Below, piece by piece: positions 2,659-53,903 of a stretch of 64,000 nucleotides of DNA. The stretch is from assembly GCA_964655655.1 (NCBI GenBank), contig CAZZPR010000002.1, positions 3,927-67,926 on the forward strand. The letters run 5' to 3'. Origin of the DNA: an uncultured Desulfobacteraceae bacterium (GTDB lineage Bacteria > Desulfobacterota > DSM-4660 > Desulfatiglandales > B25-G16). Numbering within the stretch: position 1 is the stretch's first letter; the number at the start of each line of letters is the position of its first letter. Under the pieces are notes generated by a model that was given only the letters and a program-made list of their open reading frames with translations, made no database searches and was not told where the DNA came from. The translations under genes were made by a program, and so were the position numbers.

Positions 2659-4398
2659 ATGAAATCGAATTGTTCTGAAGCACTTCTGGATTATGTGCCC
2701 GCCTTCCAGAATACCTGGGAACCATTCATTTTTTATTATTACTTAAGAAATTCCAAGGTACACTCGAGTAAGCTTACCAGGGGCGAATTCTGGACCGGTG
2801 CAAAGAAGGCCGCCTGGGTTATAAGAAAATACGGTTGCCGCCGCGGAGACCGGATAATACATTGCTTCGGAGCCAATAATTTTTATGATCTCGCCTTTCG
2901 CCTGGGTGCTGCCATGACCGGTGCAATACCAGTTACCATAAATTGGCAGGCGGATAATATCCAAAGGATCCTCTACAAGATAGAGGTCACTGATTCCAGG
3001 CTGATTGTCACGGATTCCCATTTTAATCCTGATTATTTAAATTCAATAAAGATCCGGTTTCCACATCTGCCCCTATTTTTTTCGGATAATCTGGACACCG
3101 GGGAAGTCTTGCCCGAGGAAGACTTTGTCAGAGAACTGGAACCTGAATCTACAAGGATCATCGTATTTACTTCCGGTACAACCGGAAAGCCCAAGGGTGT
3201 TCAGTTGCCCTACAGGGCCTACCGCACAAACCGGTACACCTTCGAGGAATTTTTGCAGGTTGATCCGGAGGACCGGTTTGCGGTATTAGCAGTCAACCCT
3301 TTGCATCATACCAATTCCACGGCCATAACAGACTGGGCCATGCGCCGGCCCGGATCTCAAATCCATCTCATAGAAAGGTACAGCACGCAATTCTGGAAAA
3401 TTTTGAAAGAGGTTTCCAAGAGAAATTATGATCGTCTAATTATACCCACTGTATCACGGCATTTTGATTTCCTGGAATCACTTGAGCGGGAGAGGAGACT
3501 GCCCCTTGAATTTGAGGAATTAAAGCAGGCCATGAGCAATGCAGAGTTCCTTATCGGTTCCGCCCCGGTAGGCCCAACGACCATACGCAGGCTTCGGTAT
3601 TATACCGGGTGCCTGCCCCACGTAAGGTTTGGCTCAACAGAGACCTGCCTCCAGGTCATCGGAACCCCTGTGCACCTGTGTGAGGAGGCTAAGTTAAGTG
3701 CATTTAAAAGGGGGTGGGACCACCGGATAGACGGGGGGAAACTTGCAGGTTACTATATCGGCCGGCCTCACCCTCCCTTCACAGAGGCCCGCATTGTAAA
3801 AAGCCTGGTGCGGGGGAACAAGGATTTCATGAAAGACTGTGGTCCGGGCCGGGCAGGATACCTGGTTACCCGCGGAGAGAACCTGATGACCGGCTATGTC
3901 AAGGACCCGGAATCCACCAGGGATGCATTCCGGGATGGATGGTATACGGGGCTCAAGGATATTTGCTTTTATCTGCAAAACGAGGGGGACGGGGAATTGG
4001 ATTATTACTGGGTTAGCAGGGAATCTACACTATTAATCCGCGGAGGGGCCAATTATTCCTATGACCAGATAAACTCGGAGTTGATTGATTTTGTTCGCCG
4101 TTTTTACCGGTTAACCCTGGATTCCTTCGACCTTGCGGTGGTGGGCCTTAGACTGGAAAGCGAACACGAGGACTCATGCTGCGTTACAGTGGAAACCAAA
4201 GACCAAAAGGCCGAGTCAAAGAGGGGAGAAATGGAGACCACTTTCAGGAAAATGGCCCCCCAATATGTTTCAAAGGGGGCCAGGCCGGATCACGTGAGAT
4301 TTTCCGCTATACCCCGAAATTTCAAGGGAGCGGTTCAGGTTAAAAAACTGGCTGCGGATTTCGAAGACTGGCTGAAAAGTAAAGTACCGGTTGAATAA
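2659..4398 (+). CDS. AMP-forming acyl-CoA ligase (ANL adenylating family)
   Basis: FTSGTTGKPKG P-loop, FGSTE, RGENLMTGY. Confidence 0.88.
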   Translation: MKSNCSEALLDYVPAFQNTWEPFIFYYYLRNSKVHSSKLTRGEFWTGAKKAAWVIRKYGCRRGDRIIHCFGANNFYDLAFRLGAAMTGAIPVTINWQADNIQRILYKIEVTDSRLIVTDSHFNPDYLNSIKIRFPHLPLFFSDNLDTGEVLPEEDFVRELEPESTRIIVFTSGTTGKPKGVQLPYRAYRTNRYTFEEFLQVDPEDRFAVLAVNPLHHTNSTAITDWAMRRPGSQIHLIERYSTQFWKILKEVSKRNYDRLIIPTVSRHFDFLESLERERRLPLEFEELKQAMSNAEFLIGSAPVGPTTIRRLRYYTGCLPHVRFGSTETCLQVIGTPVHLCEEAKLSAFKRGWDHRIDGGKLAGYYIGRPHPPFTEARIVKSLVRGNKDFMKDCGPGRAGYLVTRGENLMTGYVKDPESTRDAFRDGWYTGLKDICFYLQNEGDGELDYYWVSRESTLLIRGGANYSYDQINSELIDFVRRFYRLTLDSFDLAVVGLRLESEHEDSCCVTVETKDQKAESKRGEMETTFRKMAPQYVSKGARPDHVRFSAIPRNFKGAVQVKKLAADFEDWLKSKVPVE

Positions 4399-4432
4399 GG
4401 GAAACGTAAAATTTGCTGCTGGTCACAATTTT

Positions 4433-5308
4433 TTAGTCGTTTTCTTCCAGATGCCTCTCACTAATATGCTGAAGCTCCCGGAGGGTAAAGTCTATATCCA
4501 TATCGCGGACTATAGGAAGGGAATCCCTTGCCTTTTCAATTTCTTCACGATTAATGGTAGCATGCAGAATCTCCTCTCCGGTTTCTGCCATTGCTGCGGA
4601 AAGACCAAATGGGGCCACCACCGTACTGCCCCCCCAGAAGCTCCAGCCGTGCTCATTGCCCACCCGATTGACAAACACAACGTACCCCCCGTAGATCAAT
4701 GCCGGGGTGCGTATGAGCATGTCCCACGCCCTTGGGTTCATTCCCTCTATATCAAGGGCGGAGTTTGCCAAAACCACGAAGATTTCTGCATCATCCAGGG
4801 CAGCCAGGCAATGCATGGATGGATACCAGAAATCATTGCACAGGAAAAGGCCAAACCTGAAGCCCTTATAAGGAAAAACATCGAGACGCCTGCCCCTGGC
4901 AAACCTCTTCTGTTCCTCCCAAAGGCTGTAATTTGGCAGGTATACCTTTCTATGGACATGGACCACTTCTCCCCCGTCCATAAGGGCGCCTGCGTTGAAG
5001 ATATGGCCTCGAGGGCTCCTTTCCACATACCCTATAATCAATGGCAAATCCCGGCTCAATTCGAGGAGCTCCTGAAAGACCAAATTATTGCGGGTGAGTG
5101 CGTACTTGGGTATTTGGTCTCCCAATGTGTACCCGCTCATGGTCAGCTCAGGGAAAATAGCTAAATCCGCACCCTCTTCAAGTGCTCTGCGATGAAATTG
5201 GCGAACCTTTTCCAGATTGGCCTCTATCTCACCCACATCCGGTGATATCTGGACAACGGCTACGTTCAATTTCGTGTTGTCCCCGGTTTTACCCATATTA
5301 TTTGACAA
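4433..5308 (-). CDS. Carbon-nitrogen hydrolase (nitrilase superfamily), NAD-synthetase glutaminase-like
   Basis: E-K-C triad: FPEL, HRKVYLP, LCNDFW; NRVG...FWGGS. Confidence 0.88.
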   Translation of the reverse strand: MSNNMGKTGDNTKLNVAVVQISPDVGEIEANLEKVRQFHRRALEEGADLAIFPELTMSGYTLGDQIPKYALTRNNLVFQELLELSRDLPLIIGYVERSPRGHIFNAGALMDGGEVVHVHRKVYLPNYSLWEEQKRFARGRRLDVFPYKGFRFGLFLCNDFWYPSMHCLAALDDAEIFVVLANSALDIEGMNPRAWDMLIRTPALIYGGYVVFVNRVGNEHGWSFWGGSTVVAPFGLSAAMAETGEEILHATINREEIEKARDSLPIVRDMDIDFTLRELQHISERHLEEND

Positions 5309-5363
5309 CGTTCAATTCCCTTCCTCAATAATTTACGAGATCTTATTGAAATATTTTAATAAT

Positions 5364-5954
5364 TTACATTTGTCCTGTTAATCCAGCTTCACTAACTATA
5401 TGCGTCCATAGTTCCTTTTTCCCCTGTCCGGTCATGGCGGAGAATGCCAGCGGTTTATCGAAACCCTTCCCGGAAAGAATGTCTGCAATCCGGTCCATCC
5501 GGCCCTTCAACTCGCCTTTTGATACCTTATCCGCCTTGGTAAGCACAATAATGCGTTTTATGTCTTTTTCCCTGAGCCAGTGTAAAAGCTCCAGGTCTCC
5601 TTGCCCCGGCCCCCGCCTTATGTCCATTATAACCACAACCGAGGTCAGGAGAGGCCTGCCGGTCAGGTAGATCTCAACAAGCCTTTTCCAGCCCTGCCTC
5701 GTTTCCCTGGAAACACTTGCATACCCGTAACCTGGAAGATCCGCAATGTATAAGGATTTATCCACTGAAAAAAAATTTATTAACCTTGTCTTTCCAGGCC
5801 TTGAACTGGTGTGTGCAAGCCCTCTGCGATTAAGCAATCTGTTTATAAGGGAGGATTTTCCAACATTGGACCTTCCGGCAAAGGCCACCTCCGGCCTGTC
5901 CGGCGGGGGAAATTGTTTAGAATCGTTGGCACTCTTTAAAAAAGCTGCTTCCAT
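5364..5954 (-). CDS. engB: Ribosome biogenesis GTPase EngB/YihA
   Basis: GRSNVGKSS, PGKT, DLPGYG, TKAD. Confidence 0.96.
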   Translation of the reverse strand: MEAAFLKSANDSKQFPPPDRPEVAFAGRSNVGKSSLINRLLNRRGLAHTSSRPGKTRLINFFSVDKSLYIADLPGYGYASVSRETRQGWKRLVEIYLTGRPLLTSVVVIMDIRRGPGQGDLELLHWLREKDIKRIIVLTKADKVSKGELKGRMDRIADILSGKGFDKPLAFSAMTGQGKKELWTHIVSEAGLTGQM

Positions 5955-7097
5955 CTACTTGGTTTTGAGGAATTCCCCTATTCTATGGAGTCCCTTGGTT
6001 ATGTTTTCTATTGAATTGGCATAGGAAAATCTGAGAAAGCCCTCGGCATTTTCTCCGAAATCGATTCCCGGGGCTACCCCTACCCCCGCCCTTTCAAGCA
6101 TTTCAAATGCAAGCTCGTAGGAGTTGGCAGATATATGCCCGGCGTTTGCCAATATATAGAAGGCTCCTACCGGATCCACATTTATTCCGAAGCCCAATTT
6201 CCTGAGACCTTTTAGCATATAAAGCCTTCTACGGTTGTACGTATTCTTCATCTTTTCGATGTCCGCCCGGGCGTCATTCAACGCCGTAATACCGGCCCAC
6301 TGGGATACACTGCTGGCAGAGATAAAAAAATTTTGCTGAAGCTTTTGCATGGGCCTTGTGAACTCAGGTGGAGAGATCACATATCCGAGCCTCCACCCGG
6401 TCATGGCATAGAGCTTGGAAAAACCGTTCATCACAAAGCACTTTTCCGTATATTCCAGAATAGTGTGCTCATCACCCTTATATACCAGGCCGTGATATAT
6501 TTCATCGGATACCACGTAAGGCCCGAGGCGGGCTATATCTCGCATCCTTTCCGCGGAAAGAATGTTCCCGGTGGGATTTGAGGGGGAATTTATGAGCACG
6601 GCCTTTGTGTTTGAGGATATTCGGCAGGCTACCTCTTTTGGAAGAAGCTGAAACCCTTCTCTTTCCCGGGTCTTAACCAAAACACATTTTCCGCCCATAT
6701 ATTTAATAATATTGGGATAGCAAGGATAGTAGGGGTCGGATAAAATTACCCCGTCCCCCCTTTTCAGCAGAACGGAGAATATCAGGAACATTGCCGGGGA
6801 TGTACCGGAGGTAACTATCACCCGGTCAGGCGTTATATGAACCCCGTATTTATTCAGGTAATAATCGCATATTGACTCTCTCAGTTCAGGCACTCCCAGG
6901 CTATGGGTATAATGGGTTTTCCCCTCCCTTGCCGCCATTACAGCTGCTTCTTTTATGCATTTAGGGGTATCAAAATCTGGTTCTCCTATCTCCAGGTGGA
7001 CTATATCACGCCCCCGCCTTTCAAGAACATTGGCCCTTTCCAGCACATCCATAACAATAAAGGAGCGAATATCTTTGGCCCTGTCGGCAACTTCCAT
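5955..7097 (-). CDS. PLP-dependent class I/II aminotransferase
   Basis: GEPDF, NSPSNPTG, SDEIY, GFSKLYAMTGWRLG. Confidence 0.93.
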   Translation of the reverse strand: MEVADRAKDIRSFIVMDVLERANVLERRGRDIVHLEIGEPDFDTPKCIKEAAVMAAREGKTHYTHSLGVPELRESICDYYLNKYGVHITPDRVIVTSGTSPAMFLIFSVLLKRGDGVILSDPYYPCYPNIIKYMGGKCVLVKTREREGFQLLPKEVACRISSNTKAVLINSPSNPTGNILSAERMRDIARLGPYVVSDEIYHGLVYKGDEHTILEYTEKCFVMNGFSKLYAMTGWRLGYVISPPEFTRPMQKLQQNFFISASSVSQWAGITALNDARADIEKMKNTYNRRRLYMLKGLRKLGFGINVDPVGAFYILANAGHISANSYELAFEMLERAGVGVAPGIDFGENAEGFLRFSYANSIENITKGLHRIGEFLKTK

Positions 7098-7128
7098 ACC
7101 TACCTCCCCTGAGATATATATTGCGCCT

Positions 7129-8001
7129 TTAGATGACCTTGTTAAGGGGATATTCGATAATTCCTTCAGCGCCCCTTTCTATTAGCCGGGGAATAACTTC
7201 CCTCACAGTGTCTTTGTCCACCATTACCTCAACCGATACCCAGTCCGACTGGAAGAGGTGTGCTATAGTCGGGGATGTAAGGCTGGGCAAGATTTCTATG
7301 ATCCCCTTTAGCTTTTTCTCCGGGGCGTTCATCTTCAGGCCCACAATATTCTCGGCCTTTAACGCCCCTTTTAACAGCAGGGAAATTTGCTCGATCTTGG
7401 CCCTTTTCCATGGGTCTGCCCATGCGGCTTTGTTCGCGATGAGTATGGTGTTTGATTTCATGAGCTCATGGATAATCCTCAACCCATGGGCCCTGATAGT
7501 GCTCCCTGTTTCAGTTACCTCGACAATTGCATCCGCCAGGCCAGATACAACCTTGGCCTCGGTGGTTCCCCATGAAAATTCCACCTTGACGTCTATCTTT
7601 CTCCGGGCAAAGTATTTTTTGGTAAAATTTACCAGTTCGGTTGCAATCTTTTTTCCCTGTAAGTCCGAAATGTCCCTTATATCGGAATCCGATGATACCG
7701 CCAGTACCCATTTCGCGGGATTCTGGCTGGCCTTGGAATATATTAGGTCATCCACTATTTCAACATCCGATTCATTTTCCTCGGTCCAATCCCTGCCGGT
7801 AAGGCCTGCGTCTATAGTCCCGTTTTCTACATGTATGGACATTTCCTGGGCCCTTATAAGGGAGCATGCCACTGTTTCATCATTTATATCCGGAAAGTAA
7901 TTACGGTCATTTGTAGATATGTTCCAGCCGGATTTCTCGAAAAGCCTTAATGTAGCTTTTTCCAGGCTTCCCTTGGGTATGCCCAGTTTAAGCTGATTCA
8001 T
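7129..8001 (-). CDS. hisG: ATP phosphoribosyltransferase (long form)
   Basis: [26 protein letters not shown]-terminal regulatory domain; start moved to ATG at 8001. Confidence 0.95.
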
Positions 8002-8377
8002 TTTTGTAAACCCTTTCCGGGTCAAAGACCCTTTCATCTATTATGGTTTTGTTTCCGTTTTTATCCACCCTGCCGTGAAAACAGCTTTCATACCCCAAGT
8101 GGCAAGCTGCCCCGCCTATTTGTTCGACCTTGAGCAGGACCGTATCATTGTCGCAGTCCACGAATATATCCTTTACCTTTTGTATATTGCCGGAGGTAGC
8201 GCCTTTGTGCCACAGCTCATTGCGGCTTCGGCTCCAGTAATGGGCCTCACCCGTCTTAAGAGTTATTCCCCACGCCTTTTTATTCATGTATGCCAGCATC
8301 AGCACCCTGCCGGATTTAAAATCCTGGGCAATAGCCGGAATTATCCCCCCGCCCTTTTTAAAATCCAGTTCAACCAT
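7988..8377 (-). CDS. hisI: Phosphoribosyl-AMP cyclohydrolase
   Basis: [32 protein letters not shown]. Confidence 0.96.
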
Positions 8378-8511
8378 GGTCTCCTTTCTCCAGTTTTATT
8401 TAAACTTGCAGAATGATTTATACAAAAGTTATTTTTTGTTGTCTACAGTACATTTTTTCGGTAGTCTGAATAGACATTTTTTAAGGATAATATTAAAGGA
8501 AATCTGCAAAA

Positions 8512-9399
8512 ATGCAAGGGATCAGGGAAACAGACTTTCAAGAACTCGATTTGGTTAACAGGGGCAAGGTCAGGGATATATACAAGGTGGACGATAAACT
8601 GCTTGTTGTGGCCACGGACCGGATATCCGCCTTTGATGTGGTGATGGACGATCCTATACCGGATAAGGGGAGGATATTGAACAGGATATCGGTCTTCTGG
8701 TTTAAGAAGACCTCCTCCATTATCCAGAACCATTTTATAACCTCCGATCCCGAACAATATCCGCAACCATGCCGGCCTTACAGAGACAATCTTTATGAAA
8801 GGAGCATGTTGGTAAACAGGGCAAAACCACTGCCGGTGGAATGCATTGCAAGGGGTTATCTTTCCGGGTCGGGATGGGTGGAGTACAATAACACGGGAAG
8901 CATTTCCGGCATATCCCTGCCACCAGGACTAAAAGAATCATCCGAATTGCCGGAGCCTATATTCACCCCTTCCACTAAGGCGGAATTGGGGCTCCATGAC
9001 GAAAACATCTCCTTTGAACAGACAGTTGATATGGTGGGAGAGGATATCGCAGAGGAAATAAGAAGGATCAGCCTGGAGTTATATAAATACGGAAGAGATC
9101 TGGCCTGCCGCAAAGGTATTATAATCGCTGACACCAAGTTCGAGTTCGGGCTTCTGGAAAACAGGCCTGTGCTTATAGACGAGGCCCTGACCCCGGATTC
9201 CTCCAGATTTTGGCCAATGGATAAATATGAACCGGGAAGGCCCCAGAAGAGCTTCGACAAACAATTTTTAAGGGATTACCTGAACGTCCTTGCCTGGCAA
9301 AAAAAGCCGCCCCCGCCAAAACTACCCCCGGATATAATCCGAATAACCAGAGAAAAATACATAGAAGCCCTTGAGCGATTAACGGGGGAAACCCTTTAA
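8512..9399 (+). CDS. purC: SAICAR synthetase
   Basis: [37 protein letters not shown]. Confidence 0.97.
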
Positions 9400-9430
9400 T
9401 TATTGGCCTGTCTGTTATTCCCCGCCTCCC

Positions 9431-9459
9431 TTGACAATGGTACTACCGATGTTTACCAT
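9431..9459 (+). promoter_or_regulatory. Putative sigma70 promoter of grpE-dnaK
   Basis: TTGACA-N17-TACCAT. Confidence 0.55.
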
Positions 9460-9533
9460 TTTTTAGTGATTTATAAAATCTTGGCCTGTACTTCTTGATA
9501 GCAGGCAAATCAGCGCAAAAAGGGGTTGAGGAT

Positions 9534-10181
9534 ATGAGGGATAACAAAACGAATCTAAACAAGGCAATGAACGGTTACAAGGAAATGGAAAAAGGCGCGG
9601 AAAATAATGAAGAAAACGAAGAAAAACCCATGGACCAAAAGGAAGGCCACAAGGGCAAACCCAAGAAATCCGGGGAAATGACCAAACAGGAACTCGTTGA
9701 AAAGTTGCACTCCGCGGAAAAGGAGGCCCAAAAACATTATGACATGTATACGCGGGCCTATGCCGAGATGGAAAATGTCAAAAAGAGAAGCAGAAAAGAA
9801 AAAGAGGAATTTGTTAAATACGCCAATGAAAGCCTGATAAAGGAAATACTCTCGGTAATCGACAATCTTGAAAATGCGATATCACACGCCAGGGACGGGG
9901 AAAATCAGGCAGGTATCGCAGAGGGCCTGGAAATGACCCTGAGCGGCTTAATGAATATCCTGCAAAAGGCAGGCCTTGAGGAAATTGAGGCGGATGGAAA
10001 ACCCTTTGACCCCAATTACCACGAGGCAATGTCTCAACTGCAAAGCGATGAAATGCCCCCTGGCTACGTGGCAAAGGAATTGCAGAAGGGCTACACCCTG
10101 AATGGCCGCCTGTTGAGGCCGTCTAAGGTATTGGTATCCAGTGGCGGCCAGGAAGATGATAGACAAGATACTGAAAAATAA
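9534..10181 (+). CDS. grpE: Nucleotide exchange factor GrpE
   Basis: FDPNYHEAM, QKGYTLNGRLLRPSKV; start uncertain (9495 or 9534). Confidence 0.95.
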   Translation: MRDNKTNLNKAMNGYKEMEKGAENNEENEEKPMDQKEGHKGKPKKSGEMTKQELVEKLHSAEKEAQKHYDMYTRAYAEMENVKKRSRKEKEEFVKYANESLIKEILSVIDNLENAISHARDGENQAGIAEGLEMTLSGLMNILQKAGLEEIEADGKPFDPNYHEAMSQLQSDEMPPGYVAKELQKGYTLNGRLLRPSKVLVSSGGQEDDRQDTEK

Positions 10182-45500: not shown

Positions 45501-46088
45501 CTATACCTTTTGGTGAATCTGTGATACGAAATTATTCAGCAACACCTGATTTTCTTCCGGGGTCATCCTTTCTTTAATTCTTTCTTCCGCCAGTGAAACT
45601 GCAAAATCCACCATCTCTGCATGAAGGTACTGTCTAGCGTTTACTCTTTCCTGTTCAGACATGAGTTTGGCTTCCTCTATCATTTGGTCAGCCCTTTGTT
45701 TGGCCTGGCTGATATACCTGTCTTTTTCTTTTTCGCCAATCTCCAGGAGCCTTTCCCTTATTTCTTGAAGATGGGGACCTATAGAATCAAGTTTCTGTTT
45801 TGCATCCTCCATTTTTGACTTTGCATCTTTATGCTTGGTTTCCACCGCCTGGAGCTCATCCTGTATGGAGTTGCTGTAACTATGCAAGAAATTCATCAGT
45901 GGTTTTCTGCCGTACTTTACAGCCACAAAGGCAATAACCCCAAAGTTGAACAGGCGCATTATCAAATCCCAGATATCCCGCGCGTCTACAGACTCCTCAA
46001 CTGCCATTACATCTGGACACAGGATCAGCAGATAGGATCCCGCCAAAATCACCGGCATCAAAAGGTATTTACCTCTGCCTGATATCAA
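45501..46088 (-). CDS. atpF: ATP synthase subunit b
   Basis: N-terminal leader, RLFNF TM segment, coiled coil, AVSLAEE. Confidence 0.88.
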   Translation of the reverse strand: MISGRGKYLLMPVILAGSYLLILCPDVMAVEESVDARDIWDLIMRLFNFGVIAFVAVKYGRKPLMNFLHSYSNSIQDELQAVETKHKDAKSKMEDAKQKLDSIGPHLQEIRERLLEIGEKEKDRYISQAKQRADQMIEEAKLMSEQERVNARQYLHAEMVDFAVSLAEERIKERMTPEENQVLLNNFVSQIHQKV

Positions 46089-46522
46089 CCCTGCTTTCCC
46101 CCTCGTATAAATTTGTTGGTTATCTCCTGGGCCAACGACTCGGCATCTCTGTTAATACTAAAATAATTCCGGGCCTCCTCCATTTCTTTTTCTATATCGG
46201 CCCTGCCTTTTTTCTTAAGCCCTGTTATTTCCTCCTTGGCAGAACCGAATATTTCCCTGGCCCTTTGGTTACCCGCTTGATTCATTACTGCTCTCTTCCC
46301 ATGGGCCTCTCTTTTTGCCCGGTCTTCCCGCTCCTCGTAGTCCCTTAAATAGTCTTCTGTCTTTTGTTCCATCTCCTCGATCTTTTTTTTGGTGCCCTCG
46401 ATCTTGTCCGACCTTTCCCTTATTGTTTTTAAGACAGGACGGAAAAGAATTCGATTCAGGATAAAAAGCAGCACCAAAAAATTTATGACCTGCAAGACCA
46501 ATGTAGCGTTTATGCTTATCAT
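46085..46522 (-). CDS. atpF: ATP synthase subunit b'
   Basis: INATLVLQVINFLVLLFILNRILFRP. Confidence 0.9.
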   Translation of the reverse strand: MISINATLVLQVINFLVLLFILNRILFRPVLKTIRERSDKIEGTKKKIEEMEQKTEDYLRDYEEREDRAKREAHGKRAVMNQAGNQRAREIFGSAKEEITGLKKKGRADIEKEMEEARNYFSINRDAESLAQEITNKFIRGGKQG

Positions 46523-46540
46523 CTTTTCATCCTGACTGAG

Positions 46541-46789
46541 TTAAACCACAAATATAAGCAAAAGCGCTATTACCAGTGAATATATCCCTGTGGACTCAGA
46601 TACCGCTTGGCCTATAAGCATGGTCCTTGTCAGAAGATTTGCCTCCTCGGGCTTATTCCCAATGGCCTCACATGCCTTTCCGCCGACAAAGCCTTCGCCT
46701 ACTCCGGGACCGATTGCCCCCAGACCCATCGCCAGCCCAGCACCCAGAAGAGATGCCGCCCTTATTATTTCTGCTCCTTCTATTGCCAT
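46541..46789 (-). CDS. atpE: ATP synthase subunit c (single hairpin, Na+-binding signature)
   Basis: P28, E32, E65-S66-T67, Y70; AGGAGG RBS before ATG 46789. Confidence 0.96.
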   Translation of the reverse strand: MAIEGAEIIRAASLLGAGLAMGLGAIGPGVGEGFVGGKACEAIGNKPEEANLLTRTMLIGQAVSESTGIYSLVIALLLIFVV

Positions 46790-46814
46790 TCTAACCTCCT
46801 GATTGTCTAGATTG

Positions 46815-47789
46815 TTAAACAACGAATATTAAAACCAGGGCCACCACAAGTGAGTATATGGCCGTAGATTGTGCTACTGCCTGTGCAATAAGCATAGTCC
46901 TGGTGATTACCCCTACCTCATCTATATTACGGGCAACCCAGGAAACAGCATCCTTGGCGGTCAATCCATTTCCTATTCCCGGGCCTATTCCTCCCAGACC
47001 CATGCATATACCGGCACTTAAAAGGGAAATAGGTATAATAATGCCTTCCGCCTCCGGAAAAGCCCCAAAAAGCAACACAAAGCTCACCAAAAGTCCGAAA
47101 ATAGCAGGAGTTTGTGCCACCGCCTGCCCCAACAACATGGTAATGGTAGCGGATCTGCCTGCCTCGGGCTGCCTGGCTATTCCCTCGCAGGAAGCTCCAC
47201 CTGCCATTCCTCCTCCTATACCCGACCCAATAGCAGAAAGGCCGGTAGACAGGCCCGCTCCCAATAGAGCCGCCCAATAGGGAGAAAAAGGCAAACCCTT
47301 CGGACTCATAAATATCAGTATAAAGGACACCACGAGCGCAAAGATCGCCGGTGTCTGACAAACCGCGGCACCTATGAGCATATCCGTAGTAAGCCGGGAA
47401 GTTACCATCGGCTGGCGGGCCATACCATCACATGCATGTCCAGAGGGAAAACCCGAACCCAATCCGGATCCCAGGGCACCAAATCCCATACAAGCCCCCG
47501 CTCCTATTAATGCATAGGGCACCAGCCTGACTTCCGTTTCAAAGCCCAAGAAGAGCAGCAATATGGCAACTACCAGGGCAAATATAGCGGAGGTCTCTGT
47601 CATGGCCTGACCTATCAGCATATTTTTGAATATGTCCCCTGATCTATCAGGGCGCTTGCTAAGTGCCCGATCCGCCAAGCCTCCAGTATAACCCATACCA
47701 AGGGCGGCTCCGATTGCCCCGAAACCTATGGAGATACCTGCTCCAAAATATGAAGCCGCATTTACAAATGCGTTCAACTCAAAATCCAT
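46815..47789 (-). CDS. atpE: Four-hairpin fused ATP synthase c subunit (8 TM helices)
   Basis: Four ~81-aa c repeats; carboxylate position is E65, Q145, Q226, Q307. Confidence 0.92.
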   Translation of the reverse strand: MDFELNAFVNAASYFGAGISIGFGAIGAALGMGYTGGLADRALSKRPDRSGDIFKNMLIGQAMTETSAIFALVVAILLLFLGFETEVRLVPYALIGAGACMGFGALGSGLGSGFPSGHACDGMARQPMVTSRLTTDMLIGAAVCQTPAIFALVVSFILIFMSPKGLPFSPYWAALLGAGLSTGLSAIGSGIGGGMAGGASCEGIARQPEAGRSATITMLLGQAVAQTPAIFGLLVSFVLLFGAFPEAEGIIIPISLLSAGICMGLGGIGPGIGNGLTAKDAVSWVARNIDEVGVITRTMLIAQAVAQSTAIYSLVVALVLIFVV

Positions 47790-47791
47790 AT

Positions 47792-48466
47792 CTACTTTAC
47801 CTGCACAGATATATAAACAAGGGTCAACATGGTAAACACGAATGCCTGTATTAAACCAATAAACATTCCGAAAAATACATATAAAAAGGGTGGTATAATG
47901 AGGCTATACAAAAGCCTGGAAACCACAAGTATAATAATGGCCCCGCCCATAATATTTCCATACAGACGAAAGGATATGGATATCACTTTTGCAAGCTCTC
48001 CTATTACGTTTAAAGGGGCCATGAAGAATATGGGCTCAAAGTAGCCCTTAATGTAATTTTTGAGTCCTTTTGCCTTGATCCCTGCATAATGGGCGATAAA
48101 AAACCCCATGATCCCCAAACCCAGGGGAGTGTTTAAATCCTTGGTGGGCTCCGAAAGCCAGGGAATTACACCCAGCATATTGCACAGCACAAGAAACATA
48201 AAAAGTGTACATATGAGAGGGTAATACCTGGGGGCCATATCCTCGTCCAGGGCATCCCTGGTCAGATTGTAGAATGCATTGACAAATAACTCCGCAAATA
48301 CCTGAAGGGGGTTGGGAACAAGGGAGATATTTTTAGTGGCGCCCAAGGCAAAGACAATAAGCACAGCCATAACTATCCAGGCCATAATAAGGGTTTCCGA
48401 ATTGAACACAAGGGTGGTTCCGAAAACCTCCAAAGTCCAGTGTGGAATATAACTCAATTCTTCCAT
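47792..48466 (-). CDS. atpB: ATP synthase subunit a
   Basis: PTKDLN, SISFRLYGN with essential Arg, IQAFVFTML. Confidence 0.97.
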   Translation of the reverse strand: MEELSYIPHWTLEVFGTTLVFNSETLIMAWIVMAVLIVFALGATKNISLVPNPLQVFAELFVNAFYNLTRDALDEDMAPRYYPLICTLFMFLVLCNMLGVIPWLSEPTKDLNTPLGLGIMGFFIAHYAGIKAKGLKNYIKGYFEPIFFMAPLNVIGELAKVISISFRLYGNIMGGAIIILVVSRLLYSLIIPPFLYVFFGMFIGLIQAFVFTMLTLVYISVQVK

Positions 48467-48482
48467 GGATTTTCTTCTTTTT

Positions 48483-48866
48483 TCAGCCTCTTTGAGGTAA
48501 TCTAATCTTACTCACTACCAGGTTGTCCAGCAGGATGGAAATCTGGATCGCAAAAATACCCACCATGACAGCCGCAAAATTTATATTTCCTGATTTCAGA
48601 GAAATCACCAGGGGAATGGCCAGAATAAAATACCTGCCGATCAAGGTTCCCATATTCAATATAATCCTTGCCCTTTTTCCCTTTCCAATCTGAAGGGGCA
48701 ATAATTCTGCCATAATGAAAAAATTAAGGACACTGAACAAGGCCCCTAACGCAAGACCTTTTGCTGCTTCCTCCAACCCCAGGCCAAGGCATACGGAAGA
48801 GACGGCAAAAAACAACAATAATGCAAACAGAGAATACCTTTTACGAATTTCAGGGATTCGTCTCAT
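48483..48866 (-). CDS. atpI: ATP synthase protein I
   Basis: Four TM helices, GALFSVLNF, upstream of atpB. Confidence 0.8.
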   Translation of the reverse strand: MRRIPEIRKRYSLFALLLFFAVSSVCLGLGLEEAAKGLALGALFSVLNFFIMAELLPLQIGKGKRARIILNMGTLIGRYFILAIPLVISLKSGNINFAAVMVGIFAIQISILLDNLVVSKIRLPQRG

Positions 48867-49099
48867 TTCCCCTTGTCCTCTGACTTAATAGTCTCCATTA
48901 CCTGGCGATATACCGTAACTGCCCCTCCTGCCACACCCAGTATAATAAATATCGTTAAAAAGAGGCCCTTTGTATGGAGCCATTTATCCAAAAAATAGCC
49001 GATGGCAAGGCATAACAAAATGGCGCCCACCATAGTCAACCCCAGCTGGGTAACCAGGACCAAATACCTTGACCATCCATAATCTTTTTTTAAACCCAA
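48863..49099 (-). CDS. atpZ: AtpZ/gene-1 family protein
   Basis: IGYFLDKWLHT between two TM helices. Confidence 0.85.
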   Translation of the reverse strand: MGLKKDYGWSRYLVLVTQLGLTMVGAILLCLAIGYFLDKWLHTKGLFLTIFIILGVAGGAVTVYRQVMETIKSEDKGK

Positions 49100-49120
49100 A
49101 GCCCAAATTATCCGAGAAAC

Positions 49121-49534
49121 TTATTTTTTCTCAGCCACTTTTAAACGGGCCATGGCCTTTTTCAAGGCCGCCTCCGCCCTAGCAAAATCTATGTCTTCAG
49201 CCTTGGTATCTTCAAGTCTATTCCTGGCCCTTTCCATGGCGGATCTGGCACGCTCGATTTGAATTTCTTCCTTCTTTTCCGCTGCCTCTACCAATACAGA
49301 GACACGATCCTCTAACACCTCAGCGAACCCGAAAGTAACGGCCACCCTCTTTATATGGGAGTTATCCTTGTATCTGAGTTCCCCCGGGTGCAAGGAAGAC
49401 AATAGTGGCATATGCCCGGGAAGCACCCCGAATTCGCCCAGTTTACCCGGCAAAATAACGGTTTCAACCTCCTCCTCTTTAACTAACACCTTGGAGGGCG
49501 TTATAATATCCAACAGGATTTTCTGGTCCATCAA
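49121..49534 (-). CDS. atpC: ATP synthase epsilon
   Basis: IITP, GEFGVLPGH, GFAEV, C-terminal helix hairpin. Confidence 0.96.
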   Translation of the reverse strand: MMDQKILLDIITPSKVLVKEEEVETVILPGKLGEFGVLPGHMPLLSSLHPGELRYKDNSHIKRVAVTFGFAEVLEDRVSVLVEAAEKKEEIQIERARSAMERARNRLEDTKAEDIDFARAEAALKKAMARLKVAEKK

Positions 49535-49545
49535 GACTCCAAAAA

Positions 49546-50970
<1,425 letters not shown>

Positions 50971-51846
50971 TTATTTTCTCGCTGCCTCGGCTCCGCCTAT
51001 GATATCCATCAATTCTTCGGTAATTGCAGATTGCCTGAGTTTATTATAGGTTAAGGTTAGAGAATCAATCATATCATCGCAATTCCGGGTTGCGTTATCC
51101 ATGGCCACCATACGGGCAGCATGTTCGCTGGCCTGGTTTTGTAAAAATGCATCATATATGGCCAATTTTACATATTGAGGGATAAATTCCCCAATCAATC
51201 CTTCGGAGGAAGGCTCGTAGAGGTACTCCCCTCCTTTTTCCGGCTTATCCCCTTTATCTCCCGGCAGGTCAAGGGGTATCAGCTTGGCCATAAGGGGGGT
51301 TTGCCTGGCAACACTCTCGAAATGGGCGTAGAGAATATACACCTCATCCGTCCACCCGTTGATACAATTATTCAAAAATCTCCTTCCCATCTGTACGGCC
51401 AGGGCTATATCTGCATCGCCGTATACTTCACTATGTGCGTGGGTAATATTATAATTCTTTCTGGTAAAGTAATCCTTTCCCTTTTTTCCTATCAGCGTAA
51501 GGCCGTATTCTATGCCCTCTTTTTTCTTTTTCTCGATCCAATTTTGGGCGGTGCTAATCAGGCTGGTGTTAAACCCCCCGCAAAGGCCTCGATCTGCCGT
51601 AAAGACAGCCAATTCCACCTTTTTTGGTTCGCCGGTTCCACCAAGCAGAGGATGGACACACGGTTCTATATTTCCATATAGCCTACCAAAAACTTCCTGG
51701 AACCTGGAGGAATAAGGCTCAAGCTCACTCAGCTTACCCCTGGTCTTCCTTAATCTAGATGCCGCCACCATATTCATGGCCCGGGTAATCTGCTTTATCT
51801 TTTTTACCGCACCGATTTTTCTGCGTATATCTCTGATTGACTCCAT
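50971..51846 (-). CDS. atpG: ATP synthase gamma
   Basis: ITRAMNMVAA, DRGLCG, SEHAARMVAM, RQSAITEE. Confidence 0.98.
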   Translation of the reverse strand: MESIRDIRRKIGAVKKIKQITRAMNMVAASRLRKTRGKLSELEPYSSRFQEVFGRLYGNIEPCVHPLLGGTGEPKKVELAVFTADRGLCGGFNTSLISTAQNWIEKKKKEGIEYGLTLIGKKGKDYFTRKNYNITHAHSEVYGDADIALAVQMGRRFLNNCINGWTDEVYILYAHFESVARQTPLMAKLIPLDLPGDKGDKPEKGGEYLYEPSSEGLIGEFIPQYVKLAIYDAFLQNQASEHAARMVAMDNATRNCDDMIDSLTLTYNKLRQSAITEELMDIIGGAEAARK

Positions 51847-51851
51847 ATATA

Positions 51852-53360
51852 TTAGGTCTGTACCTTCTCTTTAAATTTCTCAAGGGCATAAAAAAGTTTT
51901 TTATCAAGTTCTTCGCTTATCTCTTTCTTTTCCCGGATTTCATCCAGTATTTCCCGGTGCTCCTTTTCCATGAATTCCAGCATCTGGGTTTCATATTCAC
52001 TTATTGATTCTACCGGGTGCTCATCCAGGAAGCCCTTTGAGCCTGCATATAAGATCATTATTTGCCTTTCCGCGGGCATGGGCTGGTATTGGGGTTGCTT
52101 CAAAACCTCTACCAGACGTTTTCCCCTCTCCAGCTGTCTCTGGGTGGCCTTGTCCAGGTCGCTTCCAAATCGAGTAAATGTCTCCAGCTCACGAAATTGT
52201 GCCAGGTCCAGCCTCAGGCTTCCGGCCACACTCTTCATTGCCTTTATCTGCGCGGAACCCCCCACTCTGGATACCGACAGGCCCACATTTATGGCGGGCC
52301 TTACCCCGCTGAAGAATAAATCCGGCTCCAGGTATACCTGACCGTCTGTAATGGATATGACATTGGTGGGGATATAGGCGGAAACATCCCCTGCCTGGGT
52401 TTCTATTACAGGTAGGGCGGTCAAAGATCCCCCCCCTAATTCATCGTTCAGCTTGGCGGCCCTCTCCAGTAATCTGGAGTGGTTGTAAAAAATATCCCCG
52501 GGATAGGCCTCCCTTCCGGGCGGTCTTCTTAGAAGAAGAGATATCTGGCGATATGCAACAGCCTGTTTGGAAAGATCATCATAAATTATAAGGGCATGCT
52601 GACCATTATCCCTGTAATATTCGCCTATAGCGCAACCCGCGTAAGGGGCTATAAACTGCATGGTGGCGGGATCACTGGCACAAGCGGAGACAACTACTGT
52701 ATAATCCATAGCATTATTTCGCCTCAGGGCATCCACCACTTGGGCCACGGTAGACTGCTTTTGTCCTATAGCCACATATATGCAAACCACATCGCTGTCC
52801 CTTTGGTTTATGATGGAATCAACGCAAATAGCCGTCTTTCCGATCTGCCTGTCTCCTATTATCAGCTCCCGCTGACCTCTGCCTATGGGTGTCATTGCGT
52901 CAATTGCCTTTATCCCGGTATGCATAGGTTCCTTTACCGGCTGGCGTTCTATAACTCCGGGAGCGACCCTTTCAATGTGTCTAAATTCCTTGGCGTTTAT
53001 AGCACCCTTGCCGTCCAAAGGCTGTCCAACAGCATTAATTACCCTACCCAGGACTTCATCCCCGACCGGTATTTGGGCAATCCTGTTGGTACGCGTAACC
53101 ACATCTCCCTCCCTGATATTGCTGTCGCTCCCCATAAGGGCAACGCCAACGCTGTCTTCCTCTAAATTTAAACAAAGGCCGTAAATACCGCCCGGAAACT
53201 CCAGCATTTCCATTGCCATGGCGTTTTCAACCCCGTAAACCTTGGCAATTCCATCACCAACCGACAAGACAATGCCTGCTTCCTTGATATCTATCTTGGA
53301 CTCATAATCCTTTATTTGATCCCTTATTACTCTACTTATCTCTTCTGCTTGAATCTCCAT
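51852..53360 (-). CDS. atpA: ATP synthase alpha
   Basis: [31 protein letters not shown]. Confidence 0.99.
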
Positions 53361-53366
53361 CTTCCC

Positions 53367-53903
53367 TTATGCCCCCTTTAAGGTATCTCTTAGTTTTTCG
53401 AGCTGGCCTTTTATGCTTCCGTCTAAAATTGTATTCCCAACCTTGATTATGATTCCTCCAATTATACTGCTGTCTTCCTCTACATGTATCTTTATTTTCT
53501 TTGATGTCCGATCTTCTAATGTTCTCTTTATCCTGCTCATGCTCTCCTCCTTCAACTTGCCGGAAGTTACTACAGTGGCCCGGGCTATATTGGATGCCTC
53601 ATCAGCCAAATTCCTGTATTGTTCCGCAATGCGATCCACGTATTCAATCCGTTTTTTTTGGAGCAGGACAGTCAGGAAATTTCGGATAATATCAGAGGAT
53701 CCTGCCTGGTCCAACACCTTGTCCAGCACACCTTTCCTTTCTTCCATTGCATAAACAGGATTGATAACCACCTTTCTAAGTTCCTCATTTTTAAAGTAAA
53801 ATTGGGAGAACTCCTGCAACTCAGTCGCATACTTTTCATAGTTACCGTCCTCCTGGCCCACGCTCAATAGGGCCTTTGCGTACTTTTTCGAAACGGCGGT
53901 CAT
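53367..53903 (-). CDS. atpH: ATP synthase delta
   Basis: KYAKAL, NFL.VL..K.R, IIGGIIIKVG..ILDGSI. Confidence 0.96.
   Translation of the reverse strand: MTAVSKKYAKALLSVGQEDGNYEKYATELQEFSQFYFKNEELRKVVINPVYAMEERKGVLDKVLDQAGSSDIIRNFLTVLLQKKRIEYVDRIAEQYRNLADEASNIARATVVTSGKLKEESMSRIKRTLEDRTSKKIKIHVEEDSSIIGGIIIKVGNTILDGSIKGQLEKLRDTLKGA

Follow-up and report, generated by a model that had tools for sequence, protein, structure and literature searches.

A fused four-hairpin c subunit with a single ion-site glutamate in an F-type ATP synthase operon of an uncultured Desulfobacteraceae bacterium: a candidate hybrid rotor with consecutive silent positions

The number of ions that a rotary ATP synthase passes for each ATP sets the yield of ATP from the membrane potential, and this ratio has so far been thought to vary mainly through ring size. 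A locus of an uncultured Desulfobacteraceae bacterium (GenBank assembly GCA_964655655.1, contig CAZZPR010000002.1, positions 3,927 to 67,926) raises the question of what a rotor subunit that lacks most of its ion sites would do to it. The 64,000 nucleotides analyzed here, to which we refer as the window, hold an F-type ATP synthase operon in which the gene directly upstream of atpE encodes a c subunit of four fused hairpins, c4, with a carboxylate in the first hairpin only. Our reading is that c4 is probably a rotor subunit of the organism's only F-type synthase, in a heteromeric Na+ ring with many copies of the one-hairpin c encoded by atpE; co-assembly, one c4 per ring, the ring size, Na+ coupling, and the direction of work are what we infer from the genes.

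The preliminary description of this locus, made from the DNA letters, had reported four diverged tandem c repeats in one open reading frame upstream of atpE, with the essential Glu in repeat 1 and Gln in repeats 2 to 4, Met at position 32 of repeat 1, and the Pro, Ser-Thr, and Tyr ligands retained in repeat 4, and all of this stands. The product of 324 amino acids has four stretches that match PF00137, and when repeats 1 to 4 are aligned with the downstream c, the carboxylate column reads E (ETSAIF), Q (QTPAIF), Q (QTPAIF), Q (QSTAIY), and E (ESTGIY). The one carboxylate per hairpin that defines an F-type c subunit is thus not present in c4, where Glu is found in hairpin 1 only. Where Ilyobacter has Gln32, repeat 1 has Met and repeats 2, 3, and 4 have Ser, Gly, and Asn, and repeat 4 has the helix-1 Pro (GPGIGNG) together with Ser-Thr and Tyr. 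Repeats 2 to 4 are 35-41% identical to repeat 1, and because pairwise identity among the repeats is 36-48%, they appear to be old; the one-hairpin c is closest to hairpin 4 among the c4 hairpins (54% identity). The AlphaFold2 model of c4, made from an alignment of 15 orthologues (predicted local distance difference test score, 84.9; predicted template-modeling (TM) score, 0.84), has four hairpins as eight long helices, in ten DSSP segments, and each hairpin superposes on solved c subunits with a target TM-score of 0.8-0.9. No whole-chain fold match to the model was found in the PDB, where it matched single hairpins and chain 4bem_J only (root-mean-square deviation 10 for 4bem_J).

The one-hairpin c of the window carries the full two-carboxylate Na+ motif, with E32, V63, E65, S66, T67, and Y70 as aligned to 1yce, 3zk1, and 4bem, a motif that has been described for Fusobacterium nucleatum (PMC3692424; papers given here by identifier are cited for the excerpts available to us). 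In the F. nucleatum ring the Na+ site lies between two adjacent c subunits, with Glu32 and Glu65 from one and the Val63 carbonyl oxygen and Ser66 from the other, while Glu65 accepts hydrogen bonds from Ser66 and Tyr70 and a water is bound at Thr67 (PMC3692424). The preliminary description had called this gene a normal atpE. It does lie directly downstream of c4; its start is most likely the ATG at 46789 (82 amino acids), which follows an AGGAGG, with the TTG at 46822 being less likely, and position 32 is Glu rather than Gln (GVGEGF).

How the residues are distributed over a fused chain can be read from 221 distinct multi-hairpin relatives of c4. The first hairpin has the consensus E32 with ES(A/S)..F or ET(S/A)..F, the middle hairpins have Q-T-P..F or L, and the last hairpin has Q-S-T..Y, with [ST][ST]..Y kept there in nearly all. 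The hairpin that precedes an internal Glu hairpin is of the [ST][ST]..Y type in 48 of 55 cases, compared with 1 of 738 for internal Gln hairpins, counts that come from kin proteins, which are non-independent, and that are not a statistical test. Because this motif precedes internal Glu and hardly ever Gln, the preceding hairpin would be the donor of the remaining ligands; the first hairpin would have lost its donor set because a Gln hairpin comes next, and the donor set of the last hairpin appears to serve whatever comes next in the ring. The natural variants EQQE (Desulfosarcina variabilis) and EQEE (D. cetonica) show the matching donor changes. This rule fits the two-subunit Na+ site of F. 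nucleatum, and it supports, across the relatives, the earlier suggestion that the last hairpin completes the site of a neighboring subunit.

The same first and last logic is found in a characterized enzyme. The best PDB sequence match for both c4 and the one-hairpin c is the c1 subunit of Acetobacterium woodii (4bem_J), which aligns as AETS..F in hairpin 1 and AQTT..Y in hairpin 2. In the A. woodii hybrid rotor (4BEM) and in the c1/c2 of Clostridium aceticum, as here, a fused c gene lies just before one or more one-hairpin c genes in an F-type operon, and the fused c has Glu with ..F in its first hairpin and Gln with TT/ST..Y in its last (PMC7911925). The Na+ ligands in A. woodii are likewise on the one-hairpin c, though position 32 of that subunit is Gln where the window has Glu, and A. 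woodii c1 has two hairpins with one silent, whereas c4 has four with three silent. The 9:1 ring of A. woodii is proven (PMC9171764), whereas the mixed ring of the window organism is a proposal. Na+ rings of 11 hairpins are formed by Ilyobacter tartaricus and F. nucleatum (c11) and by A. woodii, with nine single subunits and one double (PMC9171764, PMC3692424).

Other rotors resemble c4 in single features. In V-type proteolipids, including NtpK of Enterococcus hirae (2bl2), one carboxylate serves more than one hairpin and the site is completed by the helix of the preceding hairpin; sequence matches to c4 are weak (E 1e-6 to 1e-8). The carboxylate of V-type c subunits stands in the last hairpin, whereas that of c4 stands in the first, and silent and active positions alternate in V-type rings, whereas in the c4 family three to five silent positions follow in a row. 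The F-type operon and the Glu in hairpin 1 set c4 apart from V/A-type proteolipids. Archaeal A-type c subunits of 1, 2, 3, or 13 hairpins are also fused and have fewer ion sites (PMC9171764; bioRxiv 10.64898/2026.10.01.756066), though they belong to A1Ao enzymes with other operons, whereas the c4 operon is F-type (a, b, b', delta, alpha, gamma, beta, epsilon). F. nucleatum c11 (3zk1) shares the E32, V63, E65, S66, T67, and Y70 set with the one-hairpin c of the window, though its ring is homomeric and has no fused subunit. Finally, in the engineered fused c10 of Bacillus PS3 the hairpins are joined head to tail through their periplasmic ends as in c4, and the protein works with all sites intact (PMC8809890); it is artificial and a single E56Q kills synthesis, whereas the c4 family keeps three to five Gln hairpins under selection.

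That selection is measurable. Over 152 pairs of c4 genes (NG86, 0.15 < dS < 1.2), the median ratio of nonsynonymous to synonymous substitution rates (dN/dS) is 0.068 for c4 and 0.056, 0.097, 0.054, and 0.082 for hairpins 1 to 4, and the silent hairpins are constrained as strongly as the active one, with purifying selection on all four. Conserved signatures are specific to hairpins: RQP loops in 2 and 3, and WVARN in 4. A pseudogene or decaying repeat is ruled out by these ratios. It might still be supposed that c4 stands outside the working rotor and serves as a scaffold for assembly or as a brake or plug, or that it is a duplicate in decay, given that the essential carboxylate is missing from three of four hairpins and that two assemblies (L060, L066) have orphan c4 genes away from any atp operon. 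We consider this very improbable: dN/dS is 0.05-0.10 in every hairpin, the hairpin-1 Glu and the last-hairpin donor triad, residues that make sense only at ring interfaces, are conserved in the set of 221 proteins, and the pattern is retained in 34 of the 255 genera sampled.

The preliminary description had treated c4 as a singular find, and here it has to be corrected. In a search of a large protein collection with c4, 2455 of the 8000 candidates scored were matches at E <= 1e-3. The 120 best of these fall into three length classes, which a hairpin hidden Markov model assigns to four (15 proteins), five (78), and six (27) hairpins, with the patterns EQQQ (15), EQQQQ (66), EQQQE (12), EQQQQQ (23), and EQQQQE (3), and one odd protein of 434 amino acids that is probably miscalled. 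In a genome search with one genome per species, relatives are encoded in 409 of 425 candidate stretches, and the family is thus present in 409 species genomes, with 2 to 6 hairpins. The best 80 loci include D. widdelii, D. variabilis, D. cetonica, and Candidatus Desulfacyla, as well as metagenome-assembled genomes (MAGs) of Desulfatitalea, Desulfatirhabdium, and Desulfatiglandales. When the window's phylum was sampled evenly (401 genomes, 255 genera), a multi-hairpin c at E <= 1e-25 was found in 42 genomes and 34 genera, and 8 of 13 other genomes of the window's own order have one; 20 further loci from this sample add c2 (EQ), c3 (EQQ), c5, and c6 forms.

The Glu and Gln pattern holds throughout, with 220 of the 221 distinct relatives beginning with a Glu hairpin: EQQQ occurs in 66, EQQE in 29, EQEE in 1, EQQQQ in 67, EQQQE in 19, EQQQQQ in 25, EQQQQE in 3, EQQ in 7, EQ in 1, and EE in 1, with one odd case. 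The Met at position 32 of hairpin 1 proved to be a peculiarity of the lineage: the closest relatives of the window c4 have Met or Leu there, and Glu is the family norm. No fused form of 568-2000 amino acids was found at E <= 1e-20, which is weak evidence that the fused protein never makes up a whole ring.

Gene order points to a close partnership with the one-hairpin c. In the best 80 loci an a gene lies directly upstream of the fused gene in 78 and a one-hairpin c (E32 with EST..Y) directly downstream in 77, the exceptions being one contig end and two orphan genes, and in the 20 further c2-c6 loci the one-hairpin c is likewise downstream in 19. The order in relatives is nearly always Z-I-a-cN-c1-b'-b, where cN is the fused gene and c1 the one-hairpin gene. 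The c4 start falls 2-3 nt past the a stop codon in 63 of 77 loci and has a short Shine-Dalgarno sequence (4 nt in 48 of 80), and the one-hairpin c has a Shine-Dalgarno sequence of at least 5 nt in 76 of 77 loci, after a median gap of 66 nt. In the window the c4 start codon is 2 nt past the atpB stop codon, and 25 nt, including a consensus AGGAGG, separate the c4 stop from the one-hairpin gene. These signals would fit low synthesis of c4 and high synthesis of the one-hairpin c, and the placing of the c4 start beside the single-copy a gene, while the one-hairpin c has a strong ribosome-binding site of its own, suggests a fixed low copy number of c4. The earlier proposal that gearing is adjustable through the subunit ratio finds no support in this arrangement. 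The one-hairpin c is also far more conserved, at a mean identity of 82% compared with 54-57% for any fused hairpin.

A FastTree phylogeny of 97 hairpins over 82 columns, which has limited resolution, places the first hairpins of c2-c6 in one split (19 of 19 taxa, support 0.92). The clade of one-hairpin c subunits (support 0.975) also contains the last hairpins of one c5 and one c6, and the last hairpins of c3 cluster with hairpin 3 of c4. The simplest reading would be that the fused protein grew by repeatedly capturing the downstream c as its C-terminal hairpin and then silencing it. Such capture implies that the one-hairpin c must adjoin the fused protein in the ring, and this history, as read from the tree, would be the best indirect support for a mixed ring.

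The residues by themselves admit a different assembly, in which c4 forms rings of its own (for example, three copies with 12 hairpins and 3 sites) and the one-hairpin c forms separate ordinary rings, giving two gearings. The hairpin-4 donors would complete the hairpin-1 Glu65 of another c4 equally well, and hairpin numbers of 2, 3, 4, and 6 all divide 12 by our arithmetic. We regard this assembly as improbable, as one ion per ATP would by the same arithmetic need more than 450 mV for synthesis, and the five-hairpin forms, which are the commonest (78 of the best 120), divide neither 11 nor 12. In addition, the one-hairpin c adjoins in 77 of 80 and 19 of 20 loci and was captured by fusion, and A. 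woodii builds a mixed ring (PMC9171764).

The heteromeric ring that we favor would extend the A. woodii hybrid rotor from two hairpins to four, with c4 and many one-hairpin c subunits in a single Na+-binding c-ring. Under the site rule, Glu65 (and Glu32) would come from one hairpin and the Val63 carbonyl, Ser66, Thr67 (through a water), and Tyr70 from the hairpin before it. Hairpin 1 of c4 would then form one Na+ site with the subunit preceding it in the ring, hairpins 2, 3, and 4 would form none because of their Gln, and hairpin 4 would supply Ser, Thr, and Tyr for the Glu of the subunit that follows, and one c4 would take up four ring positions with one ion and three consecutive silent teeth. 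A ring of about 11 hairpins with one c4 would carry 8 Na+ per turn, or 2.7 per ATP, a ratio that the bovine 8-subunit ring also has. The range of ions per ATP has been given as 3 to 5 (PMC5662883). By our arithmetic, a ratio of 2.7 at -180 mV would sustain about 46 kJ/mol, compared with the 57 kJ/mol at 3.3 that is given for A. woodii (PMC5662883). So low a gear would pay off where the sodium-motive force is large, for example in seawater or in saline mats, and a Na+-pumping Rnf is constitutive in Desulfobacteraceae (PMC11887813).

The genome of the window organism (G000; 2.93 Mb, 95.8% complete) has two a/c sets, the window operon and an N-ATPase operon on another contig (C51), and these give the organism one rotary ATPase of the F type and one of the N type; beyond the window operon the genome showed no further F-type Fo. 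It also encodes one RnfD/NqrB homologue. The possibility that c4 is the c subunit of the N-ATPase is ruled out, as that operon lies elsewhere (C51) and the window operon has delta, b', and b; an N-ATPase operon has the order beta-epsilon-Q-R-a-c-b-alpha-gamma with no separate delta, which the window operon does not show. Two or three a genes are present in each of the 41 other carriers of the phylum sample, and in about 49 of 359 noncarriers by hand count. Eight of the extra a loci were read: six are orphan Z-a-c modules, one is an N-ATPase, and one is the N-ATPase of the window genome itself. The c of the orphan module is H+-like (Q or M at 32, then ESL or ESI..Y), and no b or F1 genes lie alongside. 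In D. widdelii and two other relatives (G021, G354), each with a single F-type alpha/beta pair and two a/c modules, one F1 seems to face two alternative a/c modules, which may be exchangeable.

These genomes bring in the chief alternative, that the same hybrid ring is built but that its job is ATP-driven Na+ export by the logic of a V-ATPase. With fewer sites per turn, hydrolysis would build a larger Na+ gradient, and synthesis would be left to another module, which would be the orphan H+-like a-c module in relatives, with substrate-level phosphorylation or the N-ATPase as the other source of ATP in the window organism. The at least two a genes in all 41 other carriers and the pairing of one alpha/beta pair with two a/c modules in G021, G354, and D. 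widdelii would fit such a division of labor, and F1 could push the ring through silent positions where ion-driven torque would be absent. We nevertheless hold export to be rather unlikely as the main function. The window genome already has an N-ATPase, an enzyme usually thought to export ions, and it has no other F-type Fo that we could find. The A. woodii enzyme, with one silent hairpin, makes ATP in liposomes, and an enzyme with a V-type c also made ATP (PMC9171764).

Several points nevertheless weigh against c4 as a rotor subunit of the main Na+-driven synthase. The ring size and the c4 copy number are assumed from other rings, and the residue pattern would suit a ring of c4 alone just as well. 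Gln hairpins passing the a subunit would offer no ion step to make or hold torque, and a silent stretch would be mechanically hard for a synthase. Indeed, a single E56Q in the fused c10 of Bacillus PS3 was enough to stop ATP synthesis (PMC8809890, citing Mitome 2004), an observation that speaks for export, and three to five consecutive silent positions would be hard for a synthase because even this single change was not tolerated. Either the hybrid module acts chiefly as a pump driven by ATP, or these enzymes have adaptations, which may lie in the Thr-Pro that invariably follows Gln or in the a subunit that belongs to the module. The hairpin-1 Met32 of the window c4, in place of Glu or Gln, may make its single site poorer for Na+. 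Because a second a gene is present in all 41 other carriers and a single F1 in the three tested, the hybrid module may be a conditional or specialized alternative rather than the main synthase. No match to dsrA was found in the 95.8% complete genome, a result that also favors export; the organism, known from the metagenome of a microbial mat, is perhaps not a sulfate reducer. Among the RNA sequencing runs searched, none contained the window stretch.

A wider generalization, which we offer tentatively as a possibility, is that the family works as a gearbox with silent teeth, in which 1-5 fused Gln hairpins set Na+/ATP from about 3.3 to about 2.0 in a ring of fixed size, the fused protein grows by capture and silencing of the one-hairpin c, and many carriers combine one F1 with exchangeable H+-like plain-c and Na+-type geared a/c modules, giving two ions or two gear ratios. 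A ratio near 2.0 would to our knowledge lie below that of any known natural ATP synthase. The change of gearing looks evolutionary (2 to 6 hairpins), perhaps with swapping of whole a/c modules as well. If true, a natural and widespread F-type rotor with three to five silent positions would reach ratios near 2 to 2.7, and it would challenge torque models that require a carboxylate at the a/c interface at every step. Cultured Desulfosarcina carry natural EQQQ, EQQE, and EQEE variants, EQQQ being the pattern of D. widdelii, so biochemistry and cryo-EM are directly feasible, and the carriers include Desulfobacteraceae, key players in marine carbon and sulfur cycling (PMC11887813).

The literature searched contains no description of an F-type c subunit with more than two hairpins, in keeping with the preliminary description, which knew of no characterized F-type example; an earlier mention cannot be excluded. 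The spread over the phylum, the history of accretion, and the pairing with a second a/c module are likewise undescribed in that literature, in which supplements were not covered. In general terms, ProAD states that c/K variants with two or more hairpins exist (PMC11738941), and the available text of a proteogenomic study of Desulfobacteraceae names the ATP synthase just as part of the core genome (PMC11887813). What appears to be new here is a fused chain of 3-6 hairpins in which 2-5 consecutive positions are silent, the two-hairpin hybrid rotor of the A. woodii type being already known.

Gene assignments in Table 1 come from the list of open reading frames and Pfam profile matches within the window. 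The set is complete and F-type, in the minus-strand order H-A-G-D-C-Z-I-B-c4-c1-b'-b, with the c4 gene between the a and b genes in an operon that includes delta. The atpB product has an FRLYGN motif, the Arg of which we take to be the stator Arg.

Table 1. ATP synthase genes and c4 hairpins in the window, and orphan Z-a-c loci in other genomes
Feature	Coordinates	Strand	Evidence or residues
atpH (delta)	53903-53367	-	OSCP domain match
F1 genes atpH-atpA-atpG-atpD-atpC	49121..53903	-	OSCP, epsilon domains; alpha, beta by PF00006
atpC (epsilon)	49534-49121	-	epsilon domains
atpZ-like (ATPase_gene1)	48863..49099	-	PF09527, 7.6e-18
atpI	48483..48866	-	PF03899, 1.8e-05, 25.6 bits vs cut-off 25.1
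atpB (a subunit)	47792..48466	-	PF00119, 8.8e-50
c4, four-hairpin fused F-type c, 324 aa	46815..47789	-	four PF00137 stretches, E 3.5e-62, 207 bits
c4 hairpin 1	47544..47789	-	M32, E65 (ETS..F); sole carboxylate of c4; without Tyr70
c4 hairpin 2	47301..47543	-	silent: S32, QTP..F; canonical RQP loop
c4 hairpin 3	47061..47300	-	silent: G32, QTP..F; RQP loop
c4 hairpin 4	46818..47060	-	no carboxylate: N32, QST..Y; Pro28, Ser66, Thr67, Tyr70 retained
AGGAGG ribosome-binding site for one-hairpin c gene	46795..46800	-	sequence
atpE (c1), one-hairpin c, 82 aa	46541..46789	-	PF00137, 8.7e-19
atpF' (b')	46085..46522	-	PF00430, 1.2e-17
atpF (b)	45501..46088	-	PF00430, 7.4e-16
Orphan Z-a-c loci: L117 (D. 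widdelii), L119 (G021), L120 (G354), L121-L123 (window's order)			

An assembly artefact is unlikely as the source of c4, given that read contigs are identical to the window and that orthologues occur in complete genomes. Reads for this check came from two DNA sequencing runs, both from the same study of a microbial mat, and the window itself may derive from one of them. One contig assembled from the first run (X1) spans 46539-47730 with zero differences, at low depth, and pieces from the second (X2) match without differences, with a 120-base bin (47301-47420) uncovered.

Some further observations concern the loops, the operon layout, and individual loci. The cytoplasmic loops of hairpins 2 and 3 (residues about 124-127 and 205-208) have the canonical Arg-Gln-Pro, and the corresponding loop is [KR]-N-P in the one-hairpin c of relatives, N-K-P in that of the window, and R-N in hairpin 4. 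These loop differences allow the speculation that the fused subunit might have a distinct surface for docking of the central stalk. At 45501-53903 of the window, Z-I-B-c4-c1-b'-b is immediately preceded by the F1 genes (H-A-G-D-C); the Fo cluster of relatives is either isolated or followed by delta-alpha, and the order in the window is rearranged. The N-ATPase operon on contig C51 (locus L016, about 2690-9620) encodes beta, epsilon, two small membrane proteins, a, c, a 272-amino-acid b-like protein, alpha, and gamma, and its c has 92 amino acids with E32/E65 ST..Y. One locus of the phylum sample (L098, G147) has the reversed order, a one-hairpin c followed by a two-hairpin c with both E32 and EST..Y sites full, and fusion without silencing thus exists as well. 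Finally, orphan four-hairpin c genes of the EQQE type lie outside atp operons at 6998-7975 of L060 and 6998-7975 of L066. The neighbors of the L060 gene are an ERCC4-HhH nuclease gene and an alpha/beta hydrolase gene, with an SNF2 helicase adjoining; the same MAG also has a normal operon copy (L051), and the stated coverage of the L060 contig is much higher.

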